Shown here piece after piece: positions 7,228 through 63,455 of a stretch of 64,000 nt of DNA; the stretch's first letter is position 1, and the number at the start of each line of letters is the position of its first letter. A program made the translations under genes and the position numbers. The notes under the pieces are model-generated. The model was not told the origin of the DNA, did no database searches, and saw nothing but the letters and a program-made list of their open reading frames with translations. Source of the stretch: Minisyncoccota bacterium (GTDB taxonomy: Bacteria > Patescibacteriota > Minisyncoccia > UBA6257 > XYB1-36-10). The stretch is taken from NCBI GenBank assembly GCA_041651415.1, contig JBAZJH010000001.1:87713-151712 (forward strand). Direction: 5' to 3'.

Positions 7228-7995
7228 TTAGAGAGCGAAAAGAAGAAAGATAAAAACAAGGAGAAGGCGATAGACGCCAAAGGAAGCAAAAGAATGACGG
7301 CGGATATAATTCAGAAGGAATTTTATGCTTAAGGCGGCGGAGAAAAAAGAAACGATAAAACCGAGAGCGAGAAGATAAAATTCGGAAGAAGAAAAGGAAG
7401 CGGAAGTTTTTAAAAGGTCGAAAAAAGTGGCGGCGAACATGGTTGGGACGGCGAGAAGAAAAGAAAATTCAACGATAGTTTGACGGGGAATTTTTAAAGC
7501 GAGTCCGCCGATAATAGTGGCGGCGGAACGGGAAATGCCGGGAACAACGGCAAGCGCTTGGCAGGCGCCGATTATCAGGCATTCTTTAAAACTGATATCT
7601 TTGATATCTTTTTCTCCTTTACTTTCTTTAAAAAATTTTTCAAAGAGAATAAGGAAAAGTCCGCCTAAAGCGAGAGACAAAAGAACGATAGCGATATTGC
7701 CAAGAAGGAAGCTTTTAACGGTTTTATAAAGAAGAAAACCGATTAGGCCGGTAGGGAGAAAAGCGACGAAGATTTTTTTCAGAACTTCCAAGTCGAGAAA
7801 TTTTTTAAAGAAAAGGACGATAACGGAAAGAATGGCGCCGCTTTGAATGGCGATTTCAAAAGTTTTGAGGAATTCCGTTTCGGAAATTTTTAAAAGATTA
7901 GAAGCAAGAATAAGATGGGCGGTTGAAGAGATGGGTAAAAATTCGGTGAAGCCCTCAATTAATCCGAGAAGGGAAGCGGTAAAAAAATTAAGCAT
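7228..7995 (-). CDS. uppP: Undecaprenyl-diphosphatase UppP (BacA).
   Basis: 255 aa polytopic protein. MLNFFTASLLGLIEGFTEFLPISSTAHL… and …PGISRSAATI… are UppP signature regions. Confidence 0.9.
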   Translation of the reverse strand: MLNFFTASLLGLIEGFTEFLPISSTAHLILASNLLKISETEFLKTFEIAIQSGAILSVIVLFFKKFLDLEVLKKIFVAFLPTGLIGFLLYKTVKSFLLGNIAIVLLSLALGGLFLILFEKFFKESKGEKDIKDISFKECLIIGACQALAVVPGISRSAATIIGGLALKIPRQTIVEFSFLLAVPTMFAATFFDLLKTSASFSSSEFYLLALGFIVSFFSAALSIKFLLNYIRRHSFASFGVYRLLLVFIFLLFAL

Positions 7996-8048
7996 TGTTT
8001 TATTTTAGCAGGTTGCGCGAAATTTTTAAAAGCACATAATGAAAACAT

Positions 8049-8375
8049 ATGAATAATATGGAAATTTTTCCAAAGTTCGAAAAAAAAGAAGAAAGAGAAA
8101 TTAATGAAGAGGAGTTGATAGAAAAAATGAAAGGCAAGGAGCCGGGTGATGCGGAAGCGGTTGAAGTTTTAAGAAAGTGGGTAGACCAAGAGCAGGGGAA
8201 AACGGAAGATAATCTTGGTTTTAATATTAAAATGGCGGAGGTTTATGAAAAGGCGGGATGGAAGGAACAGGCGAGAGAATCTTTTGAAGCAGCAGCGGAA
8301 TATGCCTACGAGATAGATGATGAAAGATACGAAGAATTATTAGGAAAGGCGGGTGAGATGGAAAAAGGAGAGTAA
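8049..8375 (+). CDS. Hypothetical acidic protein.
   Basis: 108 aa, Glu/Lys-rich. No family recognised. Confidence 0.4.
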   Translation: MNNMEIFPKFEKKEEREINEEELIEKMKGKEPGDAEAVEVLRKWVDQEQGKTEDNLGFNIKMAEVYEKAGWKEQARESFEAAAEYAYEIDDERYEELLGKAGEMEKGE

Positions 8376-11700: not shown

Positions 11701-14471
11701 TCGCCGGCTTTGATGGTCTGTAATTCATTACCATCAATTATTCCCGTGCCGTCATAGCTGTAGATGGGAACCTGGCCGTTAGTGACCTGGCTTCCTACCA
11801 CATTAACATCCGCGTAATAACTAAGAATGCTTGATGCCACCCATTTAGTGGCAGAAGCGCTGTTATCATACGCAATGCCGTCAATAGCCGTGTCTTCAAT
11901 CACTGCGGTCAGTGTCCCGAGTGGCGACCCAATATCATAGACTTGGATGCCATTTTGGGCGGTAACGGCAGTCACGCCATAACCTTGCACGTTGTTATTT
12001 TTTATAACAACTTGCAAATTTTTTCCCGCTAGAGCAACGCCATTCTTTTGAAAGTCATGAATGTCATTGCCAAGCAAGTTGATAACGCGCGCGACTCCGT
12101 CATTGTTGTAAGAATAAATTCCTACGCCATGTTGGACGCCGCTGAACGGCGTATCGCGCACGTCTTTTATAACGCAGTTCTCAACCGTTCCGCCGGCATT
12201 CCAAAAAGCGATGCCATCAAAACGATTATTGCTGTTTCCCCGCCCTGCTCCGTCAACGATAATGTCTTTCATTATCAGATTGGCATTTTTGGCGAGAATG
12301 ATTGGTTTGTGGGTTGCGGTGGTTGTGAAGCTCCCCGTCAGAATAACGGGCGACTTGATAAAAGTTCCGCCTGCCATTCCTAGAACAGATAGGTCTTTTC
12401 CGTCATCAATAACTTGTTCTTCAAAAGTTCCGGCAGAAACCAGAACTTTGTCGCCGGTAACAGCAGCGTGGTCAACTTCACCTTGAATCGTTCCGCCGAT
12501 ACGACGGACATTATTAAAGGTGCCGTAACTATTCGGATAAGAATATGTCCGAATATCGTTTGGAGGATTTACTCCTACCACAACGGCTCTGTCAAAAGTG
12601 TTGTTAGTAAAATACGATGCCCAATCAAATTGGGTGTTATCGTAATCACCCCTCGCACGGATATGCTGGCTGTTGCCGGAAAAAGTGTTGCCGGTAATAA
12701 CGGCTCCACCGATTCCATAGACAAACCATGGCACTCCGGTGCCACTTCCTGTGAAGCTGATTGAAGCTCCGGAACCGCTAAAAGCAATTTTGTTATTAGC
12801 GATTACGCGTCCAGAAACCAAACCTGTGTAACCGGCGCCGCTGTTAATATCGATACTGCACTGATTGAGGTAATTTCCCTCAACTAAATAAGTTTGGACA
12901 TGGGAAGTATTGGTTCCCGTGTCAAAGCGTTCATCGCAGAGATAAACTGACGCCCACGGATTGATAGCGGTGGTGTCGGTGATTTCGCAGTATTTTATTA
13001 CCGCGTTATCACCAATAACCGTTACTGTTTTGTTAGTCCCAAGAGTCGGATTTTGCCAGATTTTAAGACCGGTCAAAGTGACATTATCACCTTGAACCCA
13101 GACTCCATCCGGCCCAAAATTATCTGTGGCGTTTGTTTCCACAAATGCCTGAATATTATGGTAATCCGTAATCGGGTTTCCGCTCGCATCCACTCCTTCG
13201 ACTGTTAATCCGTCTTTAGCTAAATAAAGGCCAAAGGTGTAACCGGAATAAGAGCCGGAGGATGGTGTGGAGCGATTGGCCGCTGTTTCGGAATAACTGC
13301 CAGGGAAAACTTTTACAGTTCCACCCGCAGCAACTCCGTCAATACCTTCCTGAATTGTCGAAAAAGCATCGTAGCCGTAAATGTGTCCGTCGGAGCCACC
13401 ATCTGTATAGGCAGCGTCAACGAAAACAGTAGACGGGTTCGGTTCACTTAAAATCGTCATTATGGCGTTGACCCAATAAGGGCCAAAGTCCACCGAGCCG
13501 ACAATTTTGCTTGCGATTAAGGGGCGATAAGCTGTGCCCCACCAGTTTCTTTCAGCGTCCAGTGTTGTGCTGGACAAGTTAACAACATCGCCGTTTAAGT
13601 TGACATTGTTAACTTTCAAAATACCTGACGCAGTGTCGCGAACAACAACAGCGGCAAAGTATTTGCCGGCTTCCGGCGTATAGCCGTTTTTGTTGACGCT
13701 GATACTGCCGCCGGCAACAGCCATATCGACGATGGTTGAGCTGCCAAAGCGCACGCCGTAAGTGTTGTCCGTCGCGTTGTTGGCGACAACATCGATATTC
13801 GTATCTTGGACAACTAAATTACCGCCGCCGCCTTGGTGATTAATTCCGCTATGGACATTAGTCATAGTGGAATTCTTAACCGTGAGATTTAGCGCGTAAC
13901 CTTGAACCGAACCATATAGACCATTTTGGAAAGTGCACTCCTCAATCGTGATGTCTGAGTTGCCATTGCTGGCGCCTCTTTCCAAAACGACACCAAGCCA
14001 AGCTCCGCTCGCTGTACCGTCATAGATAAACCGGCTGCCACCGTCAAAAATGCAATTTTTGACAACAGCGCCATTGACGCCAAAAAGCGAAAGAAGGGTG
14101 CTCGTGGTTATTTCAAAGTCGATATTTTCCACTCGGACGTTATCGTCCATGGAACTATCGAGATTGTAAACGACGGAACCTGCGATTGTCGTCAGGGGAT
14201 TACCGGAACCATCGATGGTTCCTATAAGATTAATTCTTTTCCCCAAGACTTTCGTTGGCGTGATGGTGCCGTTTTTGACATCTTCCGGATAACTTCCGGC
14301 CGCAATTTGAATCGTGTCGCCGTCTGCCGCGGCATTGATTGCCGCTTGAATCGTTGTTTGATCAGTCGGCACATTGATGACAGCCGCACTCGCTTCGCCA
14401 GTGAATCCTAAAAAGAGAATTACCAGCCCTAAAACTGCGAAACCGCTTTTTCTAAACTTACTCTTGTTCAT
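8799..14471 (-). CDS. Giant secreted surface protein (1890 aa) with a signal peptide, right-handed parallel beta-helix repeats, MBG/YDG-type repeats and long Pro/Thr-rich linkers.
   Basis: Signal peptide MNKSKFRKSGFAVLGLVILFLGFTGEASA. Repeated beta-helix rungs with NWWG caps (ERNWWGTAYRP, KRNWWGSPTGP). KVYGD…TYQITAGSLVG…NYNL MBG-like repeats. PTPTPTSTPTNTPVPPTATEVPPT… linkers. Confidence 0.85.
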   Translation of the reverse strand: MNKSKFRKSGFAVLGLVILFLGFTGEASAAVINVPTDQTTIQAAINAAADGDTIQIAAGSYPEDVKNGTITPTKVLGKRINLIGTIDGSGNPLTTIAGSVVYNLDSSMDDNVRVENIDFEITTSTLLSLFGVNGAVVKNCIFDGGSRFIYDGTASGAWLGVVLERGASNGNSDITIEECTFQNGLYGSVQGYALNLTVKNSTMTNVHSGINHQGGGGNLVVQDTNIDVVANNATDNTYGVRFGSSTIVDMAVAGGSISVNKNGYTPEAGKYFAAVVVRDTASGILKVNNVNLNGDVVNLSSTTLDAERNWWGTAYRPLIASKIVGSVDFGPYWVNAIMTILSEPNPSTVFVDAAYTDGGSDGHIYGYDAFSTIQEGIDGVAAGGTVKVFPGSYSETAANRSTPSSGSYSGYTFGLYLAKDGLTVEGVDASGNPITDYHNIQAFVETNATDNFGPDGVWVQGDNVTLTGLKIWQNPTLGTNKTVTVIGDNAVIKYCEITDTTAINPWASVYLCDERFDTGTNTSHVQTYLVEGNYLNQCSIDINSGAGYTGLVSGRVIANNKIAFSGSGASISFTGSGTGVPWFVYGIGGAVITGNTFSGNSQHIRARGDYDNTQFDWASYFTNNTFDRAVVVGVNPPNDIRTYSYPNSYGTFNNVRRIGGTIQGEVDHAAVTGDKVLVSAGTFEEQVIDDGKDLSVLGMAGGTFIKSPVILTGSFTTTATHKPIILAKNANLIMKDIIVDGAGRGNSNNRFDGIAFWNAGGTVENCVIKDVRDTPFSGVQHGVGIYSYNNDGVARVINLLGNDIHDFQKNGVALAGKNLQVVIKNNNVQGYGVTAVTAQNGIQVYDIGSPLGTLTAVIEDTAIDGIAYDNSASATKWVASSILSYYADVNVVGSQVTNGQVPIYSYDGTGIIDGNELQTIKAGESGYGIVASDPPGIVPSPFDVPEKPAAKGKTASRFGRQNKPMVVRTLDVVITDNVINFSGPDNTGTVGLEADAGYGPDNLNLLMMNNTITGFGTGIGTYQCESGCDTGIFTSIIANLNRIGNNFGFESNVVYLTANAKRNWWGSPTGPFHSSNPTGTGNAVSDHVDYWPFSLNEPCSVFSTSLSVASITDNYGNIVGLSATLSPAMSGKQIDFSLNGVAKGNALTDGSGVATLTGIVLDTNQGSYPVGVAANFAGDTENGASSGTASLVVNKRTIEVTTDPQTKVYGDADPAPLTYQITAGSLVGADTFSGSLTRAPGENVSTYAITQGSLALSDNYNLAFVGDNLLVTARQITVAAEPKSKTFGDSDPTVFTYQITSGSLAFSDAFSGALIRDPGEPVGDYAICQGTLALNTNYNLSFVDAIFTINPAPTPTPTSTPTNTPVPPTATEVPPTPTNTSVPPTATEVPPTATNTPELPTATATEALPTPTSTNTPVQPTATELLPTATETPEFPTATPELPTVTPEIPTPTCTSTDTPVPPTATPTETPVPPTPTLVPTTTPVLPTATVTPTMTNTPVPPDLISFSNPETGASYSGSGAMSSTGNLKFLASVEAGRVEMVGVPQLGETNTERLSDRQLIISFSSKRNQGSFIFRFKVFDKEETFCINIVLLPPTATPTETATPTLPPTATSTPTVTPTPKANQAPIISVSPEVFAMPTDATPELAVGDSQLLHITITDPDDGDIVSAFVISPTFVVEVTSVMQVGSNLSADLVFSATEIGPTSSFEIVASDGVNSVTATIVWNATEAFVEPTTTPVPPTPVPPTPTNTPEPTATPVPPTPVPPTSTPVPPTPTPTLVPTATPIPPTPTPPAKNLMILTGVVKATIGKTEPVFTCFLTGDNLARALVIADTSLDLASKIRFRITEITRNVWVVEMVEWPNTPVKFSIFVFLQDRYNRYVTAIIPSEIVE

Positions 14472-17529: not shown

Positions 17530-20500
17530 ATGTTGCTTTGGAGTTTATTTATTAAAATTATTATGGAAAATATTTTTTATATTTTTAGGGCGATAAATTT
17601 GTTTTTTTCAAAGACGGCAAAGTCGGCCGCAAAAAACAAACCGCTTGCTATAGCTTTCGTGGCTTTACTCGCAAGCGGTTTTTTTATTATTAATTATGCT
17701 TTGGCTGTTAATGGAGTAATGATTACTCCCGCAAGCGGAGGGGTTAACATTTCCATTGATACTACTTCTGCTACAGGAGGAACAGGAACTTTTAAATCAC
17801 TGAGTGGACCTGGGATTACTGAAACAACAGCGGGTAATATTTCTATAGGTCTTCACACAATTCAATTACCTTCTGGATATGAATTTGACACAAGTTCTCC
17901 CATCTCAGTTGTTGTTATAGGCGATATAGGTTTAACTTCTACTTCAATAATTCCGAATCAAACATCTTTTACTTTTGAAGTAACTAATATTTCTTCTTCT
18001 CCTAGTATTATTGGTTTTAGTAATTTAAAAGTTAGACCAACGGGAATTATTGCTCCTTCTTCCGGAAATATAACTTATTCCGGTTCGGGTATTGTCAGTG
18101 TTGATGGTAATACTAATTTTGGAACTCTTTCTTTGATTCCTGGAGCAGTTAAAAACCTTGCTTTTTCCACTCAACCGGCCGGTTCTGTTTATGGCGAAAT
18201 TTTAAGTCAACAACCGGTTGTAAAAACTCAAGACCAATTCGGTAATAATTCCGTTAATGGTTTGGCGGAGAGTAAAATAGTATCTATTTCCTTAACTTCT
18301 GGTTCGGGTTCTTTAATTGGAACTACAGAAATTGATATCGGAACCGGCTCCGGAAACGGAACTGCTTCTTTTTCGGATTTATCCGTAAATAATGTCGGTC
18401 CGGGAAAGGTATTAAGCGTAACAGCTGATGGCCTTATTGGTGTTTCGAGTGATTCTTTCGAAATAACAGTAAGGAACATCGAAGTAACGGCTGATAATAA
18501 AACGAAAGTTTATGGTGAAACTGATCTGGGTTTAACCTATCAAATAACATATGGTTCTCTTGTCGGCTCGGATGCTTTTACCGGAAATATTACTCGTGAT
18601 TCTGGGGAAGATGTCGGCGATTATTCTATAAAGAAAGGGGATTTAACTTTAAGCGAAAATTATAATCTTTCTTTTATTCCTGCTTCTTTTACTATCACCC
18701 CGAAAGCCTTATCTGTCTCGGGAATCTCTTCAATCCTTAAAACATACGATGGAAACACCACTGCTGGGGTTGATTTTAGCACTACCTCTCTTGTCGGGAT
18801 TGTCGAGGGCGATGAAGGTTCAGTGACTCTTAACCCATCTTCATATTCCGCTTCTTTTGACAACAAAAATGTGGAAACAGGAAAAACAGTGACTGTTTCC
18901 GGATTAACATTAGATGGAGCCAAAGCAGGGAATTATTCTCTGACTCAGCCGACTCTTAATGACGGAGTAATTACGCCAAAAACTCTCACTGTCACCGCTA
19001 CCGGAATTGATAAGGAATATGACGGCACAACAAACGCTACCGTCACTCTTTCTGATGATAGAGTTTTAGGAGATGATTTAACGTTGGGGTATACAAGCGC
19101 TTTATTCACGGATAAAGATGTCGCTAATGATAAAAGTATTGATGTTACCGGCATTATTATGAATGGCGTTGATGCCGAAAATTATTCTCTTTCAAGCGAT
19201 CACGTTACCGCTTACGCAGATATAAATAAAAAACATATTACCGCATCGCTTATTTTACAGAACAAAACTTATGATGGAGATACGGGCGCAACTTATTCTG
19301 GTGACCATGTTCAATTAGTCGGAGTCATTTCAGGAGATGAGGTTCTTGCGAGTGATGGCGTTTCTAAATCTTTTGCAGATAAAAATGTTGGTGAAAATAA
19401 ATTAGTAACCGCTCTTGGTATTGTCTTAAGCGGCGTGGATTCTGGTAATTATGATTTTGATGGAATCGGGACAGGAACGGCTACAATTTCGAAACGGCCT
19501 ATTATTGTTACTGCTGTTTCTAACAAAAAAATTTATGATGGAACGGCGGTTTCATTGGGCATTCCTGATGTTACGCCAGATGGTTTTGCTACAGCTATTC
19601 AGACAGGCGACACGGCCGAATTTTCTCAAGTCTTCGATAATAAGAATGTCGGTGTGGGAAAAACGCTTACGCCAAGCGGATTAGTTGATGATGAAAATAA
19701 CGGAAACAATTATTCTTATACTTTTGTTTCTGTTTCTACGGGTGAAATTACTATTAAGTCAATTGAAGTTACCGCTCAATCTGATACTAAAGTTTATGAC
19801 GGCACAAATGCATCGAGTGTACCTCCTAAGGTAGACAATTTAGAAGGTGAGGATTTTGTCGGGACAATTCCTACTCAAACTTATGATAATGCGATTGTCG
19901 GAACTGGAAAAACTTTAACCGCCAGCGGTCTAGTGATTGATGACGGGAATGGCGGAGCTAATTATGAAATTCATTATATAATTGATTCAACTGGAGAGAT
20001 TACAGAAAAAGAACTTACCGTCACCGGAGCATCTTCTGTTGAAAAAATCTATGACGGAAATACTAATGCCGAAGTTAATTTCGGTTCTGCCTCTCTTGTC
20101 GGGATTGTCGAGGGCGATGAAGGTTCAGTGACTCTTAACCCATCTTCATATTCCGCTTCTTTTGACAACAAAAATGTGGAAACAGGAAAAACAGTGACTG
20201 TTTCCGGATTAACATTAGATGGAGCCAAAGCAGGGAATTATTCTCTGACTCAGCCGACTCTTAATGACGGAGTAATTACGCCAAAAACTCTCACTGTCAC
20301 CGCTACCGGAATTGATAAGGAATATGACGGCACAACAAACGCTACCGTCACTCTTTCTGATGATAGAGTAGAGGAAGATGTTCTGACTCCTGGGTACACA
20401 AGCGCCGCTTTTGAAGATAAAAATATTGGGACAGAAAAAACAGTGACTGTCTCCGGCATTACTAAATTAGGAACAGATGCGAATAATTATATTCTTGGCA

Positions 20501-23500
20501 ATACAACAGCCAGCGCATTGGCTGATATAACGAAAAAAGATCTTTCCGTCACAATTACTGTTGCTGATAAAGTTTATGATGGAAATACAACTGCTACTAT
20601 TGGTGAGCGCGTGCCGGTTGGTTTGATTTCTCCTGATGTCATTGATTTAAGTGGAGGAACAGCAGTTTTTTCTGACGCAATTGTCGGCAATAACAAGCCT
20701 GTTACTGCTACGGGTGTAATTATAGAAGGAACTGATGCCGGGAATTACGAATATAACGGAACGGCAACAGGAACGGGTAATATTCTTCCGGTACCGACAA
20801 CGGTTTATGTTGATGATGATTTTTCAGAGGAAGGAGGGGCGGGAGATTATACTTTTGGCTATAACGCTTTTGACACAATTCAAGGAGGTATAAATGCGGT
20901 AGAAGTTGGTGGAACGGTAAACGTGGCGGCGGGAAATTATACGGAAGTCGAGCAGATCGTTATCGATAAAAATCTATCCATCGTTGGCGAAAACAAAGAA
21001 ACAACGATTATTAAGCCAGCGCAAAATACAACTAACACGGGTCATGCTGATTCCGCTGCCTGGATTTTAGTTAATAGTGATAAAACATTTAATTTAAGCA
21101 AGGTTACTTTAGATGGTAACGGCCATTTGATAGCTATCGGCATACTTTCTCACGGTCATGGCACTATAAATGATAATATTTTCACAAATATCGCTTATAA
21201 TCCCAGCGGACCTGACTATAAGGGAATGGCGATAGAACTTTACGGTTCGGATATGACAATCGAGAATAATGAATTTGCGAATATCGGAAGAATCGGTGTG
21301 TTTAATGGAAATGGAACGAATTCGCATATTATCGGAAATACTTATACCGGAAAAGGAGCGGGTGATTGGCTGGATTATGGATTTGAAGTGGGACGCGGCA
21401 GCCAATCGGAAATTAGCAATAACATAATAACAAACAACATTGGTGTTGCTTCTGACGGTTCAACTTCCGCCGGTATTCTTGTAACGAGTTTTTTTGGTCC
21501 GGGAATATCAAACGCGACTATAACCGGAAATTCGATCTCTAATTCCACAGACGGAATTGCTGTTGGTTATGATGGAAGCGACGCAAGCATAGTTGTTGCT
21601 CATACTAATAAATTCAGCGGCAACACAAAAGATATAAATTCTACCAAACCATCTGTTGATGGAACGAGAAACTGGTGGGGAACAATAAGCGGAACGGAAA
21701 TTGCTAATAAAGTCGTTGGCGATGTGAGTTATCGCCCATGGTGCACGGAAGTTACTTGCACTGTTATCGATACCAACGGCGCGCCTACGGTAACTATTTC
21801 TTCCGTTGCCGGTTCTTTGACAAAAACTTCTCCAATCCCTATAACCGTAACTTTCAGCGAACCTGTTTATGATTTTAATGAATCTGATGTGACTGTTTCA
21901 TTAAATGCGGGGGTGACAAATTTCTCTGAAGTAAGCGGTAGCACAAGTTATACTTTCGATTTAACTCCAAATGTCGGCGTGGATGAAGGAGAAATAACAG
22001 TTGATGTGGCAGCTGAAAAAGCTTGGGACGAAGCTGGAAATTATAACTTAGCGGCAACGCAATTTGTTATTACTTATGATTCGGTAATTCCTACTCTTTC
22101 TTCTGTTTCTATTTCTTCAAATAATATTAATCATTCTTTAGCTAAGGTGGGAGATATTATTACTTTAAGCTTTACCGCAGATGAAGAGATTCAAAATCCA
22201 ACCGTGATCATTGCTTCTAATTCTATTACCGCCACAAATAGTATTGGTAATGATTGGACTGCGGTTTATACAATGCAAAGTGGCGATGCTGAGATAGTTT
22301 CGTTTGAAATTAATTTTAACGATTTAGCGGGAAATGCGGGAACGAAAGTAACAGCTACAACTGATTTGAGTTCTGTGACTTTTGATGAAACCGCGCCGGT
22401 AGTGGCGATTACTTCTCCTCTGAATGAAACAAGAGTAAATGGTGACACATTGATTTCCTTTACTGATACTTCAACTTCGCCTAAATGTTCGGTAAATAAT
22501 AACAGTTGGACTGTTTGTGAAAGCGGAGTAACAAAGCTCTCTGATATTGCTCAATTTTCTGGATTAGGCCAGGGAATATTTACGCTTTATCTTAAAGATA
22601 TTGATGAAGCGGGAAATGAAGGAACAACAAGTGTGAGTTTAATAAAAGATTCAATTGCTCCTGAAGTGGAATCTTATACCCCGACCAATTTGGCGGTGGG
22701 AGTGGACCCGACCGGAAATGTGACTGCTTTATTCAGTGAGAAAATGAGTTTGGCAACTATTAATTCCACTAATATAGAATTAAAAAAGAGCGGAGAAGTA
22801 ACCGAAGTTGAAACGGACTTAACTTTAAGCGAAGACGGAAAAACTTTAACAATCAATCCGGTCGCGACTCTTCTTAATAACTCCACTTATGAAGTGAGAA
22901 TAACAACCGGCGTAACTGATGAGGCGGGAAATAATTTGGCATCGGAGGAAACGTGGTCGTTTACCACTTCCGGCAGTTATTCGTTCACTTTATCTAAAGG
23001 AACTAAAGGCTGGAACTTGGTTTCTCTCGGAGTTGTACCGAATGACACGAATATTGACGCAGTGCTTGGAAGTGCGAAAAGCAACATTGAATCGGTTTGG
23101 ACTTATGACCCGGTTAATTATTCTTTGAACGGAGGATGGAAAGTTTATAATCCGGCGGAATCAGGAACCAGCAGTTTGTTAAATATGACAGCCGGTTACG
23201 GATATTGGATAAGCTATAAAGGAACAGAAGCGGCGACAGTTTCCGGTCCGGGAAACTTGGTTCTGGAAGGAAATAATGTTCCGCCGTCAAGAACCTTGCA
23301 AGCCGGATGGAATTTAATCGGTTATTACCAAAAAGAGAATACGACAAGCGTTTTGGCATCGCTGGCTTTGAAACATAACCTGGATGATTATTGGACGATG
23401 CTTCTTGGATACAACAACACTACAAAACAAATGACTTCTCTTACAGGCGATAATTTATTGAATCCGGGAGAAGGATATTGGGTGCTACTTGACGGAAAGG

Positions 23501-23541
23501 CAACGGACTCCTATATCTATACTATCGGTGACAGCCAATAA
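17530..23541 (+). CDS. Giant secreted surface/adhesin-like protein (2003 aa) with multiple MBG-type repeats, a right-handed beta-helix region and Ig-like (Big) domains.
   Basis: A hydrophobic signal segment follows basic residues (…KNKPLAIAFVALLASGFFIINYALA). At least 8 K(V/T/I)YDG…GNYS/NYNL MBG-like repeats are present. Beta-helix rungs end in TRNWWGT. Big/SbsA-like segments occupy the C-terminal third. The start could instead be the Met at 17563. Confidence 0.85.
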   Translation: MLLWSLFIKIIMENIFYIFRAINLFFSKTAKSAAKNKPLAIAFVALLASGFFIINYALAVNGVMITPASGGVNISIDTTSATGGTGTFKSLSGPGITETTAGNISIGLHTIQLPSGYEFDTSSPISVVVIGDIGLTSTSIIPNQTSFTFEVTNISSSPSIIGFSNLKVRPTGIIAPSSGNITYSGSGIVSVDGNTNFGTLSLIPGAVKNLAFSTQPAGSVYGEILSQQPVVKTQDQFGNNSVNGLAESKIVSISLTSGSGSLIGTTEIDIGTGSGNGTASFSDLSVNNVGPGKVLSVTADGLIGVSSDSFEITVRNIEVTADNKTKVYGETDLGLTYQITYGSLVGSDAFTGNITRDSGEDVGDYSIKKGDLTLSENYNLSFIPASFTITPKALSVSGISSILKTYDGNTTAGVDFSTTSLVGIVEGDEGSVTLNPSSYSASFDNKNVETGKTVTVSGLTLDGAKAGNYSLTQPTLNDGVITPKTLTVTATGIDKEYDGTTNATVTLSDDRVLGDDLTLGYTSALFTDKDVANDKSIDVTGIIMNGVDAENYSLSSDHVTAYADINKKHITASLILQNKTYDGDTGATYSGDHVQLVGVISGDEVLASDGVSKSFADKNVGENKLVTALGIVLSGVDSGNYDFDGIGTGTATISKRPIIVTAVSNKKIYDGTAVSLGIPDVTPDGFATAIQTGDTAEFSQVFDNKNVGVGKTLTPSGLVDDENNGNNYSYTFVSVSTGEITIKSIEVTAQSDTKVYDGTNASSVPPKVDNLEGEDFVGTIPTQTYDNAIVGTGKTLTASGLVIDDGNGGANYEIHYIIDSTGEITEKELTVTGASSVEKIYDGNTNAEVNFGSASLVGIVEGDEGSVTLNPSSYSASFDNKNVETGKTVTVSGLTLDGAKAGNYSLTQPTLNDGVITPKTLTVTATGIDKEYDGTTNATVTLSDDRVEEDVLTPGYTSAAFEDKNIGTEKTVTVSGITKLGTDANNYILGNTTASALADITKKDLSVTITVADKVYDGNTTATIGERVPVGLISPDVIDLSGGTAVFSDAIVGNNKPVTATGVIIEGTDAGNYEYNGTATGTGNILPVPTTVYVDDDFSEEGGAGDYTFGYNAFDTIQGGINAVEVGGTVNVAAGNYTEVEQIVIDKNLSIVGENKETTIIKPAQNTTNTGHADSAAWILVNSDKTFNLSKVTLDGNGHLIAIGILSHGHGTINDNIFTNIAYNPSGPDYKGMAIELYGSDMTIENNEFANIGRIGVFNGNGTNSHIIGNTYTGKGAGDWLDYGFEVGRGSQSEISNNIITNNIGVASDGSTSAGILVTSFFGPGISNATITGNSISNSTDGIAVGYDGSDASIVVAHTNKFSGNTKDINSTKPSVDGTRNWWGTISGTEIANKVVGDVSYRPWCTEVTCTVIDTNGAPTVTISSVAGSLTKTSPIPITVTFSEPVYDFNESDVTVSLNAGVTNFSEVSGSTSYTFDLTPNVGVDEGEITVDVAAEKAWDEAGNYNLAATQFVITYDSVIPTLSSVSISSNNINHSLAKVGDIITLSFTADEEIQNPTVIIASNSITATNSIGNDWTAVYTMQSGDAEIVSFEINFNDLAGNAGTKVTATTDLSSVTFDETAPVVAITSPLNETRVNGDTLISFTDTSTSPKCSVNNNSWTVCESGVTKLSDIAQFSGLGQGIFTLYLKDIDEAGNEGTTSVSLIKDSIAPEVESYTPTNLAVGVDPTGNVTALFSEKMSLATINSTNIELKKSGEVTEVETDLTLSEDGKTLTINPVATLLNNSTYEVRITTGVTDEAGNNLASEETWSFTTSGSYSFTLSKGTKGWNLVSLGVVPNDTNIDAVLGSAKSNIESVWTYDPVNYSLNGGWKVYNPAESGTSSLLNMTAGYGYWISYKGTEAATVSGPGNLVLEGNNVPPSRTLQAGWNLIGYYQKENTTSVLASLALKHNLDDYWTMLLGYNNTTKQMTSLTGDNLLNPGEGYWVLLDGKATDSYIYTIGDSQ
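18785..19064 (+). repeat. Intragenic exact duplication, copy 1 (280 bp), inside the 2003-aa gene.
   Basis: Identical at nucleotide level to 20090..20369. The offset is 1305 bp, which is in frame (435 codons). Confidence 0.85.
20090..20369 (+). repeat. Intragenic exact duplication, copy 2 (280 bp).
   Basis: See copy 1. The encoded 92 aa (SLVGIVEGDEGSV…TLSDDRV) are identical in both copies. Confidence 0.85.
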
Positions 23542-57970: not shown

Positions 57971-58513
57971 ATGGCAGGTATGTTAATAAAAAAAGAAGAT
58001 TTTTTATTAAAAAACACGCCGAGTTTGGCAAAAAAGCTTTTGGGGAAAATTTTAGTAAAAAAAATCGGCAATAAGGAAATGCGAGCGGTGATTTTAGAAA
58101 CGGAAGCTTACAACGGATTTTTAGACAAAGCTTCCCATGCGCATAAAGGAAAAACAGGAAGAAACATGATTATGTTTCAAGAAGCGGGGGGCTGGTATGT
58201 TTATTTTGTTTATGGAAATCATTTTATGCTGAATCTTGTGACGGGGCCGAAAGAATATCCGGCGGCGATTTTGATAAGAGGCGTGGAAATTTTACCGGAA
58301 AGAAAAAGAATAGACGGGCCGGGACGGCTGACAAAGTTTTTAAAAATCGATAAAAATTTGAATGGAGAAGCGGTCGGAAAAAAGAGCGGGTTGTGGATTG
58401 AAGACGGCGGAGTTAGAATAAGCCAAAAAGAAATAGAGGAACTGCCTCGGGTAGGAGTGGATTACGCAGGAGAAGAATGGGCGGGAAAATTGTGGAGGTT
58501 TAGATTAAAATAA
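57971..58513 (+). CDS. mpg: DNA-3-methyladenine glycosylase (Mpg/AAG family).
   Basis: 180 aa. …RAVILETEAYNGFLDKASHAHKGKTGRNMIMFQEAGGWYVYFVYGNHFMLNLVTG…AAILIRGVE… matches the Mpg core (ETEAY…D.ASH…T.RN..MF…YVY..YG.H..LNVV). Confidence 0.8.
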   Translation: MAGMLIKKEDFLLKNTPSLAKKLLGKILVKKIGNKEMRAVILETEAYNGFLDKASHAHKGKTGRNMIMFQEAGGWYVYFVYGNHFMLNLVTGPKEYPAAILIRGVEILPERKRIDGPGRLTKFLKIDKNLNGEAVGKKSGLWIEDGGVRISQKEIEELPRVGVDYAGEEWAGKLWRFRLK

Positions 58514-58516
58514 AAA

Positions 58517-58560
58517 AAGGCAGCTGGTAAGTCGGTCATGTTTCGAATTGTTTCAAAACA
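58517..58560 (+). terminator. Long hairpin after mpg (gcagctggtaagt…acttactagctgc).
   Basis: 13-bp stem with 1 mismatch. No clear T-run follows. Confidence 0.35.
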
Positions 58561-58809
58561 CTTACTAGCTGCAATATCATCATGAATCACTTATGTATAT
58601 TGAAGACCTAGGTAAAATATATCATAAATAACAAACTAAGTCAATATTAGAATATGAAACTCTCAATGGGCATTGTCGGGACACAATCGGACATTATTAC
58701 TATCAGGCAGAGGTTAAAGTTGTGCCGTTTTCTTTTTCTATAAAAATACCATCATCTCTAAAAAGGGGAGTGGATTATGGGTTTAGGAGAAAGCAAGTTT
58801 ATAGATAAT

Positions 58810-59400
58810 TTAATTTTTGTATTCTAAAACTACAATTAAAGATTTATTCCATTCTGTTTTAGAGGTATTTTTCTTCAAGTAATTTATTTCTTTTTTATTG
58901 TTTCTGGTTATTAAATAGATTGCCGACACTTTTATTTTAGAAAGTTTGTTATGCCATTTTTTAACTGATTTTAGATACTTTTCCGGATAATAAGGTTTTT
59001 CTTTAGGATGTTCTTTTTCCAAAAATTTTTGGTCGCTTAAAATCTCCACCTCATCAATTACGGGAAGCTCTAAGTTTTTAACTATTTTTAACTTATTTAT
59101 GTTTTCAAAATACACGGCTTTTATACCTATCCTTTTCAAATAGGATATTAAAAAGTTTTTAGCAAAATAAGTTTTTCCTTCATCTGTTTTACTAACTAAA
59201 AACACACTCTTTTCGTTTTTGAGAGATTTTACTATTTTTTTTGCCAAAACCTCCATTTCTTTTGGAGTTTTGTATTTGTTAAGCATTTGTTTAATTATAA
59301 TCTTTATGAAAAAAAATAGGGAGGATGATTGTATCCTCCCAAAGCTTTGATAGAAGGCACCTTTTAAGTGCGGCAAGAACTGTTTTTGGGGGTCTTGCAA
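58810..59400 (-). CDS. Hypothetical protein with degenerate Walker A/B-like motifs. The likely true start is the internal Met at 59286.
   Basis: VFLVSKTDEGKTYFA is P-loop-like and LPVIDEVE is Walker-B-like. The first 38 codons of the listed ORF cover a minus-strand terminator hairpin (gggaggatacaatcatcctccc + T8) and a TATAAT box, so they are probably not coding. Confidence 0.4.
   Translation of the reverse strand: MQDPQKQFLPHLKGAFYQSFGRIQSSSLFFFIKIIIKQMLNKYKTPKEMEVLAKKIVKSLKNEKSVFLVSKTDEGKTYFAKNFLISYLKRIGIKAVYFENINKLKIVKNLELPVIDEVEILSDQKFLEKEHPKEKPYYPEKYLKSVKKWHNKLSKIKVSAIYLITRNNKKEINYLKKNTSKTEWNKSLIVVLEYKN
59320..59345 (-). terminator. Intrinsic terminator between the rSAM gene and the P-loop-like gene.
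   Basis: gggaggat-acaatc-atcctccc is followed by T8 on the minus strand. Confidence 0.6.
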
Positions 59401-59457
59401 TTAGCGCCTGCTTTTGAATGCTTGGTGAGACAGGAATGTTCGGGAACTGTTTGCGAC

Positions 59458-60768
59458 TTATACACCTTGAGCGGTTTGTAGCTTTTCTTCATTTTCAATT
59501 CTCCTTCTGTTGTAGAGATGAGTGATGTTACACTTATGCTCTACAGGTTTTCGGTAATCTCCATTTTCTATCAAAGCAATACCAATACAACTATCACAAT
59601 AATCTTTCAAAGAGCATCCCATGCATTTAGGAATGTCTTTAATAGAAAAAACATTTAGAAAAGAACCTCTTTTTTTCAATATTTCATTTATTGGCTCTTC
59701 CTTGATGTTACCCATTTTCAATCTTAGGTCAAGACAAGGGTGGACATAGCCATCCGGGTCAATGACTATCTGGTCTCTTCCGGCATAACAAACAGTGTCT
59801 TGAGTTCCGCAACTTCTATACTTGTCTACGGCCGGAAAACCGTCAATTTTATCAAGGAAATTGTAGAACTTGCCATTCAGGTCTTCTTTTGAAAGACGCA
59901 ATTTTGTTTCTTCTCCGATACTACCCCTGTTTGGAGTAATATAAGGGCTGTAGGATACGCTTATCTTTTCTCCAAAGGTAGAAATGAGCTTATCGTGCCA
60001 TTGTTCTATTTGGTTGATGTTGTGATTACCAACGGTTACAGAAAGAGAAGTCCTTACTCCGAGAAACATCAGAAGATTTACATTTTCCGATATTTTACTA
60101 AAATTGTAGTTTGAACGAGTGAAGGCAGAATGGCCATTCTTAATCTCATAAATTGAAACTTGTAAATCATAGATTTTAATTTTGGAAAGAAAATCTATGA
60201 TTTTATGATTTAGAAGCGAGCCATTTGTTTTTATTTCTATGGCAAATCCAAGTTCATTTAAGAAGGATAATATCTCAAGAATATCCGGTCTTAAAAAAGT
60301 TTCCCCGCCAGTTAGGAGAATAAATATTACCCCTACCTCTTTTAACTCTTTAGCAAGGGGTAGTAGATATTTTAACTCCAGTCCTTTCTTTGTGAGTTCT
60401 TCCCAGTAGCAATGTAGGCAATTTTGATTACACTTGCTTAGAAGTTCAATGCTGGCATTTATCACTTGCCAATTTTGACGAGCATATTTACAGAGATTAA
60501 CCATAGAATAATTAATTTCCGATTTTGCTCCCGATATGTTTTTTGTCTGATGTTCATCTTCTTCTAAAAAACCTCTTACAGATTTTTGCAACAAAAGAAA
60601 ATCCTTTTTTTGTTCGCGGTTCTTGGGAAGCTGAATGTTTTTATTCACTAAGATTTCAGGGACTTTATTTGCTAAGGTTCCTTCAAAAAAGATGGAACTC
60701 CAATTCTCTCGGTTCATAATAAAAGCGGCATCTTGGTAGGTTCTGACTATTAAATCATGCTTTTTCAT
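59458..60768 (-). CDS. Radical SAM enzyme with a C-terminal SPASM domain and an N-terminal extension of about 110 aa (possible RRE-like peptide-binding domain).
   Basis: CNQNCLHC (CX3CX2C) sits at about residue 113, GGE is present, and C-terminal auxiliary-cluster cysteines follow (…CYAGRDQIVIDPDGYVHPC…CMGCSLKDYCDSCIG). A strong SD AAGGAG and a TTGACA-type promoter lie upstream. Confidence 0.85.
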   Translation of the reverse strand: MKKHDLIVRTYQDAAFIMNRENWSSIFFEGTLANKVPEILVNKNIQLPKNREQKKDFLLLQKSVRGFLEEDEHQTKNISGAKSEINYSMVNLCKYARQNWQVINASIELLSKCNQNCLHCYWEELTKKGLELKYLLPLAKELKEVGVIFILLTGGETFLRPDILEILSFLNELGFAIEIKTNGSLLNHKIIDFLSKIKIYDLQVSIYEIKNGHSAFTRSNYNFSKISENVNLLMFLGVRTSLSVTVGNHNINQIEQWHDKLISTFGEKISVSYSPYITPNRGSIGEETKLRLSKEDLNGKFYNFLDKIDGFPAVDKYRSCGTQDTVCYAGRDQIVIDPDGYVHPCLDLRLKMGNIKEEPINEILKKRGSFLNVFSIKDIPKCMGCSLKDYCDSCIGIALIENGDYRKPVEHKCNITHLYNRRRIENEEKLQTAQGV

Positions 60769-60895
60769 GATTTCATCTCCTTATTTAGTTGTATATTTTG
60801 CTTTTTATAAAGTATATCCTTTTTACTAATTTGTCAATCTTACGTAAAACTCCGCCTCTCAAGAGGGGGGGATTATGGGTTTAGGAGGAAAGTTT

Positions 60896-61375
60896 TTATA
60901 TGTGTTTAACTTTACCTTCTTTCTCTAAATGGCTTTCAGTTTTAATTTCGTCAATAAAATTAACTTTTTCAAGTTCCGAAAGTTTGGTATAAAAACAAAC
61001 TCTACCTTTGGCCGGCTTTCCCTTCCGGTGAACTATCTCGTGAGGCAGTTTTTCTATATCGCAAAGAATGTATTCCTTAGCGTATCCGCCGCCTTTCCAA
61101 CCCCTTAAATTAGCCAACTCTTCCGCCTCAAATAATTCTTCCTTAAAGTAATCTTCATTAGTTTCAACAACTCTGGACTCCTTTACCTTAGCTATATGAG
61201 TAATAGCGCTTGGTAAATAATTTCCGTTTTCGTCTTTTCTACCAACTAAAAGAAAAGCTATATATTTAGCATCTTTTTTATCAGCAGCTTGATTGGCTAT
61301 CTTGCGTCTTTGAACTACTCGCCACATCTCTGGACGGGTATAAGCTACGAGAACTTCGGCTTTATGGTTGTTCAT
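60896..61375 (-). CDS. Hypothetical protein (159 aa).
   Basis: No family recognised with confidence. A PUA/EVE-like fold is possible but unsupported. Its start overlaps the stop of the upstream gene, indicating an operon. Confidence 0.4.
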   Translation of the reverse strand: MNNHKAEVLVAYTRPEMWRVVQRRKIANQAADKKDAKYIAFLLVGRKDENGNYLPSAITHIAKVKESRVVETNEDYFKEELFEAEELANLRGWKGGGYAKEYILCDIEKLPHEIVHRKGKPAKGRVCFYTKLSELEKVNFIDEIKTESHLEKEGKVKHI

Positions 61376-61376
61376 T

Positions 61377-62204
61377 TTATGTTCTACTAGATATGTCGGC
61401 TATTAACTTATCTTTTAGATTAGAAAGACAAGAATAAAAAAGTTTTGCTTCTTCATAATATTTTTCAAAGTAGGTTTTAGTGTCCGAAGAAGATATATTA
61501 TCTATAAAATTAAAATTACGATAATTCATTCTCAATCTCATTAAATAGAAAAAATCAAAAACAGATACTATCATTTTATCCTTAAACTTTTCAACCTTGT
61601 CTTTATTTTTTTGACTTTTTATATTTAATATACCGTTTGCTATTTTATAGTTTTCAATTTTTTCTTTAGCAACCTTTTTCATTAACAGCTTAAAAACCTT
61701 TTCGTCTACTACATTTGTTTTTAGGTGTTCTCCTGGAGCTTCCTTGAATAGAAGTATATTTTTATCGTAAACATTATTAAATAACGGTTCGCTAAATTGT
61801 AATTCTTGATTAATTAACATTTTAGAAAAACCATCAATACAGCCAGAATGTTTTATTGAAAGAGAAGTTTCTTCTCCTGTTAAAATATAATTAATTACAC
61901 AAAGAATGTGATAAATCAGGTAATATGTTTTTATAGGTAGCCAAAGAACTGCTGCGGTTGAGTATTCTTTATCAAATAATACTATTTCATGTTCATCTTT
62001 AATTGATTGTTTTGTAAGTTCAATAAGTTTTTCTTTATTTTTCAGATTTTTAATTTTGTCTTTATTTAGCAAAGGAACAACAGAGCAAGATAAAGAAAGA
62101 CCTTCTGATAACTTTACTAATCGGGATATGTATTTTAGATGGGTTCTAAAATCTAATCTATCATTATTCTGAAACCTTATTTTTATTTCTTTAATAATGG
62201 GCAT
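61377..62204 (-). CDS. Hypothetical protein (275 aa).
   Basis: No recognisable motifs. It lies in an AT-rich region and is the first gene of a two-gene operon. Confidence 0.4.
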   Translation of the reverse strand: MPIIKEIKIRFQNNDRLDFRTHLKYISRLVKLSEGLSLSCSVVPLLNKDKIKNLKNKEKLIELTKQSIKDEHEIVLFDKEYSTAAVLWLPIKTYYLIYHILCVINYILTGEETSLSIKHSGCIDGFSKMLINQELQFSEPLFNNVYDKNILLFKEAPGEHLKTNVVDEKVFKLLMKKVAKEKIENYKIANGILNIKSQKNKDKVEKFKDKMIVSVFDFFYLMRLRMNYRNFNFIDNISSSDTKTYFEKYYEEAKLFYSCLSNLKDKLIADISSRT

Positions 62205-62402
62205 CTTATAGGGTGTTTACTTTAGGGCTGTTTTATACTAAAATTAAATCATAATTGAATATAGTGTAAAGACCTAAACCATAGCTTCGGCTGTGGCATG
62301 GCCAAAAAATCGTTCAACGCATTATACCCGTCATCAGGGCGCGTTGAACGTTACAGGAGGAAACTTCTGTAGAGACTGCGAGGTCTTACTGGTGGCGGGT
62401 TT

Positions 62403-63455
62403 GTGTTTTTATCCGCTACCAGATTTATAAAAAATATAAAGAATATGCGTAGTGGATTTATACAAACACCAATACTTATAATCTTAGCCGCAATAGGTAT
62501 TTTTATTGTAGGTAACGCAAGTTATCGTTTTCTTGATGATAATAAGACGAATAAAGATGAAGAAATTAAGGTTTTAGAAGAAAAGCCAGATAAAACTAAA
62601 GAGGTAGATTTGAGTAATATCTTTGGGGAAGAAACGGAAGAAAAAATATCTACCAATTCAGAATCTAAAATAAGATTATATCCTTCCTCCGAACCGGAAG
62701 AAGAGCCGGCGGCGGAAGTTGTCAGTCAAACTGCCGGCGATGCGGATAATAACGCTGAAACTGAAACAAATGATTATGTTGATGACTTGGCCGACAGAGT
62801 GGCAAAAGAGATAAAGCAACCGCTTTATCTTGGAGAGTTAGATGACGACATTGATGACTTTAATCGTATCATAAAAGCGGTTCAAGACGACCGAGAACGA
62901 TACATATCTTTCGCGGAAAAAGCAGCCAGACAGAGATTAGATGCATTAAACGGATTTATTTATCTTGCTACTGACCCGGGAATAAAAAACTTCGTACAAA
63001 GTTTAGCCGATGACGAAAAGAAAAATAGTGATGAAGCTCGTAAGAGCTACACTGAACTCTTTGGATTTCTTGAGAGTGAAATTACCGATTACATAACCAA
63101 ACTGGAGAATGCCAAAGAAGAAATAACCGAAGACAAGTTCATTGGAAGTGTTGACGACCTGTTATCTCAAAACACGAAACAAAAAGAATACTTCATCGGG
63201 CTTATGCCGCAATTCACTAAAAGCGCTCAAGAATTAGAAGAGAGAAAAGCTGATAATTTTTCTGACGGAATATCATATCTCCATAATCTATTGGCTGTAA
63301 GCGAAACACTTTCCTCTGTGAACCAAAAATTATCTCAAATAGAACAAGAAGCACGCGAAAACATTGTCTCTAATGACGAGGTAAATTGCTGGGCAACCAC
63401 AGAATATAGTGGCGGACTGAATGGAACTTCAAAGACAAGAGTTAGGTGTGAATAA
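62403..63455 (+). CDS. Hypothetical membrane-anchored acidic protein. The likely start is the ATG at 62445 (MRSGFIQTPILIILAAIG…).
   Basis: N-terminal TM helix, then a D/E-rich soluble region. The listed start at 62403 falls inside a GC-rich hairpin. Confidence 0.45.
   Translation: MFLSATRFIKNIKNMRSGFIQTPILIILAAIGIFIVGNASYRFLDDNKTNKDEEIKVLEEKPDKTKEVDLSNIFGEETEEKISTNSESKIRLYPSSEPEEEPAAEVVSQTAGDADNNAETETNDYVDDLADRVAKEIKQPLYLGELDDDIDDFNRIIKAVQDDRERYISFAEKAARQRLDALNGFIYLATDPGIKNFVQSLADDEKKNSDEARKSYTELFGFLESEITDYITKLENAKEEITEDKFIGSVDDLLSQNTKQKEYFIGLMPQFTKSAQELEERKADNFSDGISYLHNLLAVSETLSSVNQKLSQIEQEARENIVSNDEVNCWATTEYSGGLNGTSKTRVRCE

Follow-up and report, generated by a model that had tools for sequence, protein, structure and literature searches.

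The described systems closest to the locus reported here are built around radical S-adenosylmethionine (rSAM) enzymes. In the streptide system, found in Streptococcus quorum-sensing operons, the maturase SuiB/StrB (PDB 5V1Q/5V1T) joins a recognition element for peptides that are made by the ribosome and modified after translation (RiPPs; RiPP recognition element, RRE) to an rSAM barrel and a SPASM domain, which holds two auxiliary clusters; the gene of a short precursor stands beside that of the enzyme. Ranthipeptide systems (SCIFF/PapB type) pair a SPASM maturase with an adjacent short Cys-containing precursor, in clusters that often have no other tailoring genes, and sactipeptide precursors also carry conserved cysteines. 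PqqE/PqqD and MftC/MftB use a PqqD-like RRE, with a SPASM rSAM enzyme, on a small peptide, and anaerobic sulfatase-maturating enzymes (anSME) consist of an rSAM core and a seven-Cys SPASM domain. We describe a locus that resembles these systems in much of this layout, with a putative RRE, in a 64,000-nt stretch (the window) of contig JBAZJH010000001.1 (positions 87,713 to 151,712, forward strand) from a Minisyncoccota bacterium of the candidate phyla radiation (CPR, or Patescibacteria). Three genes make up its core, encoding an rSAM/SPASM enzyme, a 42-aa peptide and a small P-loop NTPase, and sequence and model comparisons indicate that they probably form a self-contained peptide-maturation cassette of an uncharacterised, CPR-restricted family, set in a variable island. 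What is observed directly is the anatomy of the genes and their conservation, selection on the coding sequence of the peptide, the Cys motifs and the resemblance in fold. The genomes of CPR bacteria are tiny, very few natural-product clusters have been recognised in them, and a search of the available literature found no described CPR rSAM RiPP of this kind. The features of the cassette are as follows.

60811-60837, minus strand: promoter-like TTGACA-15 nt-TATACT 5' of the rSAM gene, a consensus match only
59458-60768, minus strand: gene for the candidate rSAM/SPASM peptide maturase, 436 aa (protein MFA5172916.1), recognised from Pfam, homologues and an AlphaFold2 model
60469-60768, minus strand: RRE-like domain at the N-terminus of the enzyme (residues 1-100), from the structure model
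60409-60432, minus strand: CX3CX2C radical SAM motif (C113/C117/C120), which ligates the SAM-binding [4Fe-4S] cluster, invariant in 39 of 39 aligned sequences
59530-59790, minus strand: SPASM domain with seven Cys (C327, C345, C382, C385, C391, C394, C413) in invariant or near-invariant alignment columns
59500-59505, minus strand: Shine-Dalgarno (SD) sequence AGGAGA, 7 nt 5' of the peptide ATG, read from the sequence
59364-59492, minus strand: precursor-type peptide gene, 42 aa, MKKSYKPLKVYKSQTVPEHSCLTKHSKAGANCKTPKNSSCRT, recognised as an open reading frame (ORF) with homologues, with a 35-nt overlap at the rSAM 3' end
59309-59340, minus strand: intrinsic terminator (8-bp GC-rich stem and T8), found in a terminator scan 23 nt past the peptide stop
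58810-59286, minus strand: gene for the P-loop ATPase, 158 aa from ATG (196 aa from an upstream TTG), from the ORF list

The rSAM/SPASM enzyme and its N-terminal domain

The 436-aa protein matches Pfam Radical_SAM (PF04055, 5e-14, 53 bits against a cut-off of 29.5) and SPASM (PF13186, 2e-10, 41 bits against 21.5), and the SPASM model matches every sequence in a family alignment of the window protein and 38 homologues. About 45 full-length homologues (37-70% identity) were found before a gap in score from 233 to 119 bits, and all those with a source name are Patescibacteria. Fifty-nine NCBIfam families matched the enzyme, none of them above threshold (best score 86 bits; every cut-off at least 170), and no named rSAM-RiPP maturase family (AlbA, StsB, PapB, WgkB, ScmE/F, SbtM and others) scored above its NCBIfam cut-off. 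The enzyme scores far below the cut-offs for AlbA (54 bits against 850) and StsB (57 against 625), and the PapB model gives 56 bits against 340; the AlbA and StsB models align to it from about residue 105 onward, and hence with the same N-terminal offset. When the family profile was compared with PDB sequences, SkfB came first (9e-24), followed by PqqE, YydG/EpeE, CteB and SuiB.

The AlphaFold2 model of the enzyme has high confidence scores (pLDDT 91.5, pTM 0.90), and in a Foldseek comparison with the PDB its best full-length match was SuiB (E 6e-16, 445-459 columns, TM 0.58-0.62, at only ~16% identity), followed by CteB, SkfB and PqqE. SuiB, CteB and SkfB align to the model over 413-459 columns, whereas anSME ranks later (E ~3e-11) and aligns over ~383 columns; the 25 best NCBIfam matches listed include no anSME model, and no gene for a sulfatase, the kind of protein in which anSME act on a C/S-x-P/A-x-R motif, occurs in any neighbourhood examined. 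An earlier note on this DNA had placed the CX3CX2C motif near residue 113, after an extension of roughly 110 aa, and had read this as the layout of RRE-containing maturases and not of anSME. Both points find support: the extension, conserved in the family, is ~105 aa long, anSME have no such N-terminal peptide-recognition domain, and the RRE-containing or related maturases align over ~450 columns.

In the model, residues 1-100 form, at high confidence, three strands (6-11, 14-19 and 25-29) followed by three helices (33-41, 51-74 and 87-98), and this predicted strand-strand-strand-helix-helix-helix order is that of PqqD-like RREs, which have a winged-helix fold. Folded in isolation, the domain gave a pLDDT of 83, and ranks 1-5 of its Foldseek matches in the PDB were all the TbiB1 lasso-peptide RRE with bound leader, so that RRE folds are its best matches, though weak ones (E 0.16-0.4). 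Sequence comparison gave no such match: PF05402 (PqqD) was not found at E <=0.5 in any of the 39 aligned sequences, and a profile of the N-terminal domain retrieved no RRE among PDB sequences.

The peptide gene beside the enzyme

Standard annotation misses small ORFs that overlap rSAM gene ends, and the 42-aa peptide is absent from the proteins called for the source genome (a Candidatus Paceibacterota metagenome-assembled genome). We compared the neighbourhoods of ~55 loci with rSAM homologues, designated here by L numbers, and found the small ORF in nearly all those that have DNA 3' of the rSAM gene. Its ~30 distinct homologues, of 29-44 aa, lie at the same position, and the peptide and rSAM pairs span three CPR phyla (Parcubacteria, Saccharibacteria and Peregrinibacteria). 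Nearly all listed copies are preceded by an AGGAGG-type SD 5-9 nt before the start codon. Four residues, C21, K24, S26 and K27, do not vary across the aligned peptides, H or Q always stands between K24 and S26, and a second Cys always follows; most copies terminate as ...CK-x-x-K/R-x-x-x-CR, and the shorter Peribacteria-type peptides read ...ECNGK[H/Q]SKNAC[R]. The core can hence be written C-x2-K-[H/Q]-S-K-x(2-4)-C, with two to three Cys, many Lys and no conserved aromatic, acidic (Asp, Glu) or Asn residue. The peptide has no Pfam or NCBIfam family match and no PDB sequence match.

Among 25 aligned 13-codon peptide cores, pairwise differences at codon positions 1/2/3 number 513/480/2302, 70% of them at the third position, and synonymous codon differences exceed nonsynonymous ones (1804 against 705). 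Together with the SD sites, these excesses indicate that the small ORF is a translated gene and not an RNA element; the possibility that the conserved stretch 3' of rSAM acts as RNA was rejected on the third-position pattern and the SD sites, and an Rfam scan of 58500-61000 returned no match. The earlier note had given the rSAM gene its own promoter, SD and terminator. A TTGACA box (60832-60837) and an AAGGAG SD do precede the gene (the 15-nt promoter spacer falls outside the range used in our promoter and terminator scan, and the site was read from the sequence), but the only good intrinsic terminator of the region (59340-59309) lies 3' of the 42-codon ORF and not of the rSAM stop, which implies that rSAM and peptide form one transcription unit. 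Moreover, since the peptide begins before the rSAM gene has ended, the two are probably translationally coupled. The note had also singled out the locus as a candidate for undescribed peptide modification or defence, with partners that matched no RiPP or defence system it could name; the maturase layout agrees with peptide modification, and the conserved precursor-type peptide gene had been overlooked.

A divergent rSAM homologue (39% identity) in L043 is followed, at 1567-1690, by a variant peptide, MYKKIKISKGIGKLNSLGPKHDPNKCCKTSTLVSCKRKVS, which suggests a precursor family broader than the CxxK[H/Q]SK motif.

Alternatively, the enzyme might mature another protein or a metabolite, in the manner of anSME or of heme and cofactor SPASM enzymes such as NirJ and AhbD, the small ORF being unrelated to it. 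The top NCBIfam scores are indeed those of NirJ2 (86 bits) and AhbD (80 bits), and anSME is a good fold match over core and SPASM domain. Nevertheless, both scores are far below their cut-offs (500 for NirJ2, at least 500 for AhbD); anSME, NirJ and AhbD lack the N-terminal domain, which matches RREs, with weak fold scores; and the small ORF accompanies the enzyme in three CPR phyla, overlapping the 3' end of its gene or lying just past it, under selection at the amino-acid level. We regard another substrate as quite improbable, and retain the peptide encoded next to the enzyme as its presumptive target.

The P-loop ATPase and the surrounding island

By its Walker A and Walker B sequences, the 158-aa protein is a predicted P-loop NTPase of the ASCE division. 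Its Walker A reads SKTDEGKT in the window and GxxxxGKT in homologues, so that what the earlier note had called a degenerate P-loop is altered at the first glycine alone (to Ser); Walker B is VIDEVE (hhhDEVE in the family). In the family alignment G37, K38 and E79 are invariant, D78 is nearly so, position 39 is T or S, and a TRN motif and several invariant aromatic residues are conserved. Profile and per-member searches led us to reject TsaE, kinase and ABC nucleotide-binding domain assignments, as they gave only generic P-loop matches below threshold (nSTAND3, DEAD, AAA_22 and midasin AAA modules, 4e-7) and no Pfam family at its gathering score. The gene follows the terminator and has a TATAAT box of its own (in 59287-59299, minus strand) ending 7 nt before the ATG, with no SD, an arrangement kept in L065 and L066; it is therefore a separate and probably leaderless transcription unit.

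In ~20 distinct loci, ATPase homologues (37-68% identity) are encoded on the strand of the rSAM gene, 175-250 nt past its stop; in two loci they lie upstream of the rSAM gene. Since every Peribacteria-type locus is without it, the ATPase is not obligatory, and it is a recurrent yet dispensable neighbour of the enzyme. It may take part in peptide handling or self-protection, or may be an unrelated hitch-hiker sharing the insertion site. One homologue, P0130 in L070, lies ~2 kb from a member of a different rSAM/SPASM family.

The ATPase gene moves between contexts as a unit (58661-59327 in the window) that includes a conserved non-coding 3' element, and the remaining features of the region are listed here with it.

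58668-58800, minus strand: non-coding element, conserved, at the 3' side of the ATPase unit, ~135 nt, with one copy of an 18-nt repeat, kept with the ATPase gene across contexts
60861-60890, minus strand: second repeat copy, between the p159 stop and the rSAM promoter, with the exact core CTCCTAAACCCATAATCC at 60870-60887
60896-61375, minus strand: p159 (locus tag WC435_00735), 159 aa, from the ORF list, a neighbour with no assigned function outside the cassette
61377-62204, minus strand: p275 (locus tag WC435_00740), 275 aa, from the ORF list, a CPR 'hypothetical' protein outside the cassette
62271-62387, plus strand: LOOT sRNA gene (Rfam RF03000) at the island edge

Copies of the 3' element occur at L065 1497-1630, L066 5985-6116 and L067 4493-4626, in genomic contexts different from that of the window, and the ATPase-unit matches in L065 and L066 are ~85% identical to it. 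The element ends in ...GTTGTGTCCCGAC and contains the 18-nt core, of which near-exact copies (1-2 differences) are found in the elements of L065, L066 and L067. It has no Rfam match, and may serve in recombination, as an sRNA or as a terminator module; attC-like or structured-RNA readings were rejected, as the element gave only weak folds and, with four close sequences, no usable covariation. The repeat is present in the window in two exact copies, against 0.06 expected by chance, and these are 87% identical across 30 nt (58763-58792 and 60861-60890). The rSAM-peptide-ATPase cassette lies between them, as would fit insertion or recombination at the repeat. A genome-wide element was rejected, there being only those two copies in the window and no exact 16-nt core in 21 loci.

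The four minus-strand ORFs to which the earlier note had drawn attention are all present at the places it gave, the 275-aa and 159-aa genes being separated by 1 nt and not, as it had proposed, overlapping from stop to start. Its AT-rich island was confirmed in base content, as the GC content of 58810-62204 (31.8%, against 39.5% for the whole window) is the minimum among 607 sliding windows of the same size (mean 39.6%, sd 3.3%), but not in tetranucleotide distance, which is unexceptional (6.6% of windows are equally far or farther). The dip stems mainly from the ATPase (25.6%) and p275 (25.2%) genes, since rSAM (35.1%) and p159 (37.1%) are near normal. Elsewhere in the window two very large ORFs were noted, at 8799-14471 (minus strand, 1890 aa) and 17530-23541 (plus strand, 2003 aa), the region of the former having a GC content of 46-54%, far above the window mean. 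That the island is variable is upheld by L065, which is syntenic with the window at ~85% DNA identity (tRNA synthetase, SerRS, PMT_2 and mpg) and has no rSAM-peptide pair at the corresponding position. The GC-rich hairpins that the note had placed on the far side are the LOOT gene (75.4 bits against a gathering score of 46.4, over the full-length model), 66 nt from the p275 start. The region between LOOT and mpg looks like a variable island of mobile-element type.

By contrast, the four genes do not hold together as one locus. The 82 homologues of p275 (42-79% identity) are all 'hypothetical', and the p159 family is rare (23 representative clusters among 1.8 billion proteins); neither protein has a Pfam, PADLOC or PDB match, profile searches against the PDB and per-member Pfam scans included. 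A tblastn search found no relative of either in the ~55 rSAM loci, and elsewhere the two are not linked to each other, so that they look like separate passengers and not partners of the rSAM enzyme. A phage origin was considered for them and rejected: they have no relatives in IMG/VR, PHROGs gave nothing, and p275 has no GenBank phage match.

Could the island nevertheless serve anti-phage defence (a defence locus being what the earlier note had allowed for) or be of toxin-antitoxin type, with the ATPase, p275 and p159 as partners of the rSAM enzyme? Some of its parts have such company elsewhere: p275 relatives adjoin genes for a serine recombinase, N6/N4 methyltransferases, HTH_17 and HARE-HTH proteins and Eco57I-type (restriction-type) enzymes, and the C-terminal half of a few 244-345-aa proteins (P0230, P0223, P0231 and P0228) is a p159 domain, one of which proteins, P0230, has an N-terminal PD-(D/E)XK nuclease domain (PDDEXK_4, 1.6e-6), a fusion that hints at a role of p159 in nucleic-acid recognition. 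The ATPase has weak nSTAND3 matches, and PADLOC models for prokaryotic viperins (pVip) match the rSAM core. These viperin-type matches, however, cover the generic rSAM core alone, and the four proteins have no other PADLOC match; in other loci p275 and p159 are never found with rSAM or together; and the enzyme, with its SPASM and RRE-like domains and its peptide partner, is unlike viperins. A defence function for the island is accordingly highly improbable, and the passengers are left aside in what follows on the peptide-maturation cassette.

LOOT genes may mark integration sites of CPR mobile elements, as tRNA genes do. In a Wolfebacteria locus (L059), a serine recombinase gene separates a LOOT gene (7950-8074, plus strand, 74.4 bits) from a p275 homologue 3 kb away. 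tRNA genes lie 175 nt upstream of rSAM in L001 and ~570 nt upstream of a p275 homologue in L063.

Distribution, proposed maturation and comparison with described systems

In all Peribacteria loci an ABC exporter gene (ABC_membrane and ABC_tran) lies directly 3' of the peptide, 205-271 nt past the rSAM stop and on the same strand. In three other lineages, too, ABC exporters adjoin the cassette (L006/L011 and L008) or lie ~3 kb off (L001/L007). Genes with a transglutaminase core (papain-like) were seen in L006 (8829-9362), 1-2 kb from the cassette, and in L070 (3023-3931), beside the ATPase homologue P0130 and ~1 kb from an unrelated rSAM/SPASM gene; these could be leader peptidases.

Several observations weigh against a peptide-maturation cassette. 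In the window no exporter is near it, and no leader peptidase is conserved beside it in the loci compared. No NCBIfam RiPP-maturase model reaches its cut-off on the enzyme, and the peptide is very basic, with no obvious cleavage motif. In addition, the ATPase genes closest to that of the window (76-85% protein identity) sit in loci in other states. L065 has the ATPase unit beside a pyrophosphatase gene, without rSAM, peptide, p159 or p275 in the locus, and in L066 the ATPase gene stands by itself, with a Bro-N gene on one side and a guanylate kinase gene on the other. L067-L069 retain the peptide, MKKDYKPLKVYKSQAVPKHSCLTKHSKTGANCKTPKNSPCRT, and the ATPase with rSAM cut to its last 17 codons, which are fused to an unrelated 60-aa ORF (L067 3635-3920, and also in L068 and L069, contigs from three samples); this suggests recent rSAM decay, or use for an unmodified peptide with the ATPase. 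The rSAM genes of L007 (4285-5322) and L023 (4001-5038; Candidatus Liptonbacteria RIFOXYD1_FULL_36_11), which represent the closest rSAM relative in the genome collection (70% identity), are truncated after about residue 346, inside SPASM, and no peptide or ATPase follows. Finally, the peptide gene is frameshifted in the L003 group (L003/L004/L005/L010/L028; for example L003 7290-7416, from the P0015 organism), where a 1-nt G insertion directly after the C-S-S-K codons separates MKAKYISISAAISHGAKSCSSK from HSKAGAGCKMAQLVPCRKN; it is present in JGI, NCBI and Logan assemblies alike, and could mean that the gene is a pseudogene, that the assemblies have an error in common, or that frameshifting takes place there. 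Such solo and partial states suggest that parts may work outside the cassette or that it may often decay, and those of L065-L069, L007 and L023 mark it as accessory, gained and lost, and decaying piecemeal.

With no protease or exporter near the cassette in the window, the peptide might instead be the precursor of an intracellular cofactor, in the style of PqqA/PqqE for PQQ or MftA/MftC for mycofactocin, with the ATPase as an assembly accessory. PqqE, a significant match in both fold and sequence, and MftC are among the sub-threshold relatives of the enzyme, and a core strictly conserved across phyla is more cofactor-like than bacteriocin-like. Yet both models score far below their cut-offs (MftC 74 bits against 265, PqqE 48 against 381), the tailoring genes PqqB/C/F and MftD/E/F are absent from the neighbourhoods, the Peribacteria loci have an ABC exporter directly after the peptide, and the cassette is accessory, being missing or decayed in close relatives. 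We consider a cofactor precursor improbable, and hold to a peptide that is probably matured and exported.

For such a peptide we propose the following route. The rSAM and peptide genes would be co-transcribed from the TTGACA-type promoter, with transcription stopping at the hairpin past the peptide. The N-terminal RRE-like domain would bind the basic leader (M-K-K-x-Y-x-x-x-[R/K]-V...), which probably has beta-strand character, and the rSAM site, aided by the two auxiliary [4Fe-4S] clusters of SPASM, would take hydrogen from the C-x2-K-[H/Q]-S-K-x(2-4)-C core to yield, most likely, thioether cross-links from Cys to carbon within the peptide, as in sactipeptides or ranthipeptides. The recurrent ABC exporters beside the cassette suggest that the modified peptide is then probably exported. 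The ATPase, in its own transcription unit, may handle the peptide or serve self-protection, without being obligatory. As two or more Cys are present in the core, in which neither aromatic nor acidic residues are conserved, we lean, tentatively and at somewhat less than even confidence, to Cys-to-carbon thioethers over streptide- or cyclophane-type links; this choice is a guess from residue content and as such also counts against the proposal.

A bolder and somewhat unlikely extension is that the cassette represents a CPR-wide RiPP class with a new cross-link on the C-x2-K-[H/Q]-S-K core and a dedicated mini P-loop ATPase. The new links may, for example, be carbon thioethers that join Cys to Lys or Cys to Ser, or may derive from Lys, and the ATPase may join in maturation, peptide handling or self-protection; no rSAM RiPP pathway is known to have a P-loop ATPase partner. 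If this were true, the product could be one of a small number of conserved effectors that these episymbionts secrete. The rSAM enzyme and its peptide could reveal new radical chemistry, and a molecule that episymbionts may use on hosts or competitors.

Compared with the described systems, the cassette differs from each in identifiable ways. Streptide has a Lys-Trp carbon-carbon cross-link, whereas neither Trp nor any other aromatic residue occurs in the conserved core of the window peptide family, and the cassette belongs to CPR bacteria and not to Streptococcus. SkfB, the best PDB sequence match, has an N-terminal [2Fe-2S] and a Twitch domain in place of the RRE-like and SPASM domains of the window enzyme, even though the peptide, like sactipeptide precursors, has conserved cysteines and CteB is also a top fold match. 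Ranthipeptide cores are of the CxxxD/N type with acidic or amide acceptors, for which the window peptide has no conserved Asp, Glu or Asn. The PqqE and MftC systems keep their RRE as a separate protein, unlike the fused RRE-like domain found here, and act on another peptide motif, with cofactor genes that are lacking downstream in our case. Altogether, the system most probably belongs, in kind, with fused RRE-rSAM-SPASM RiPP maturases encoded next to their precursors, as in the SuiB, CteB and AlbA systems.

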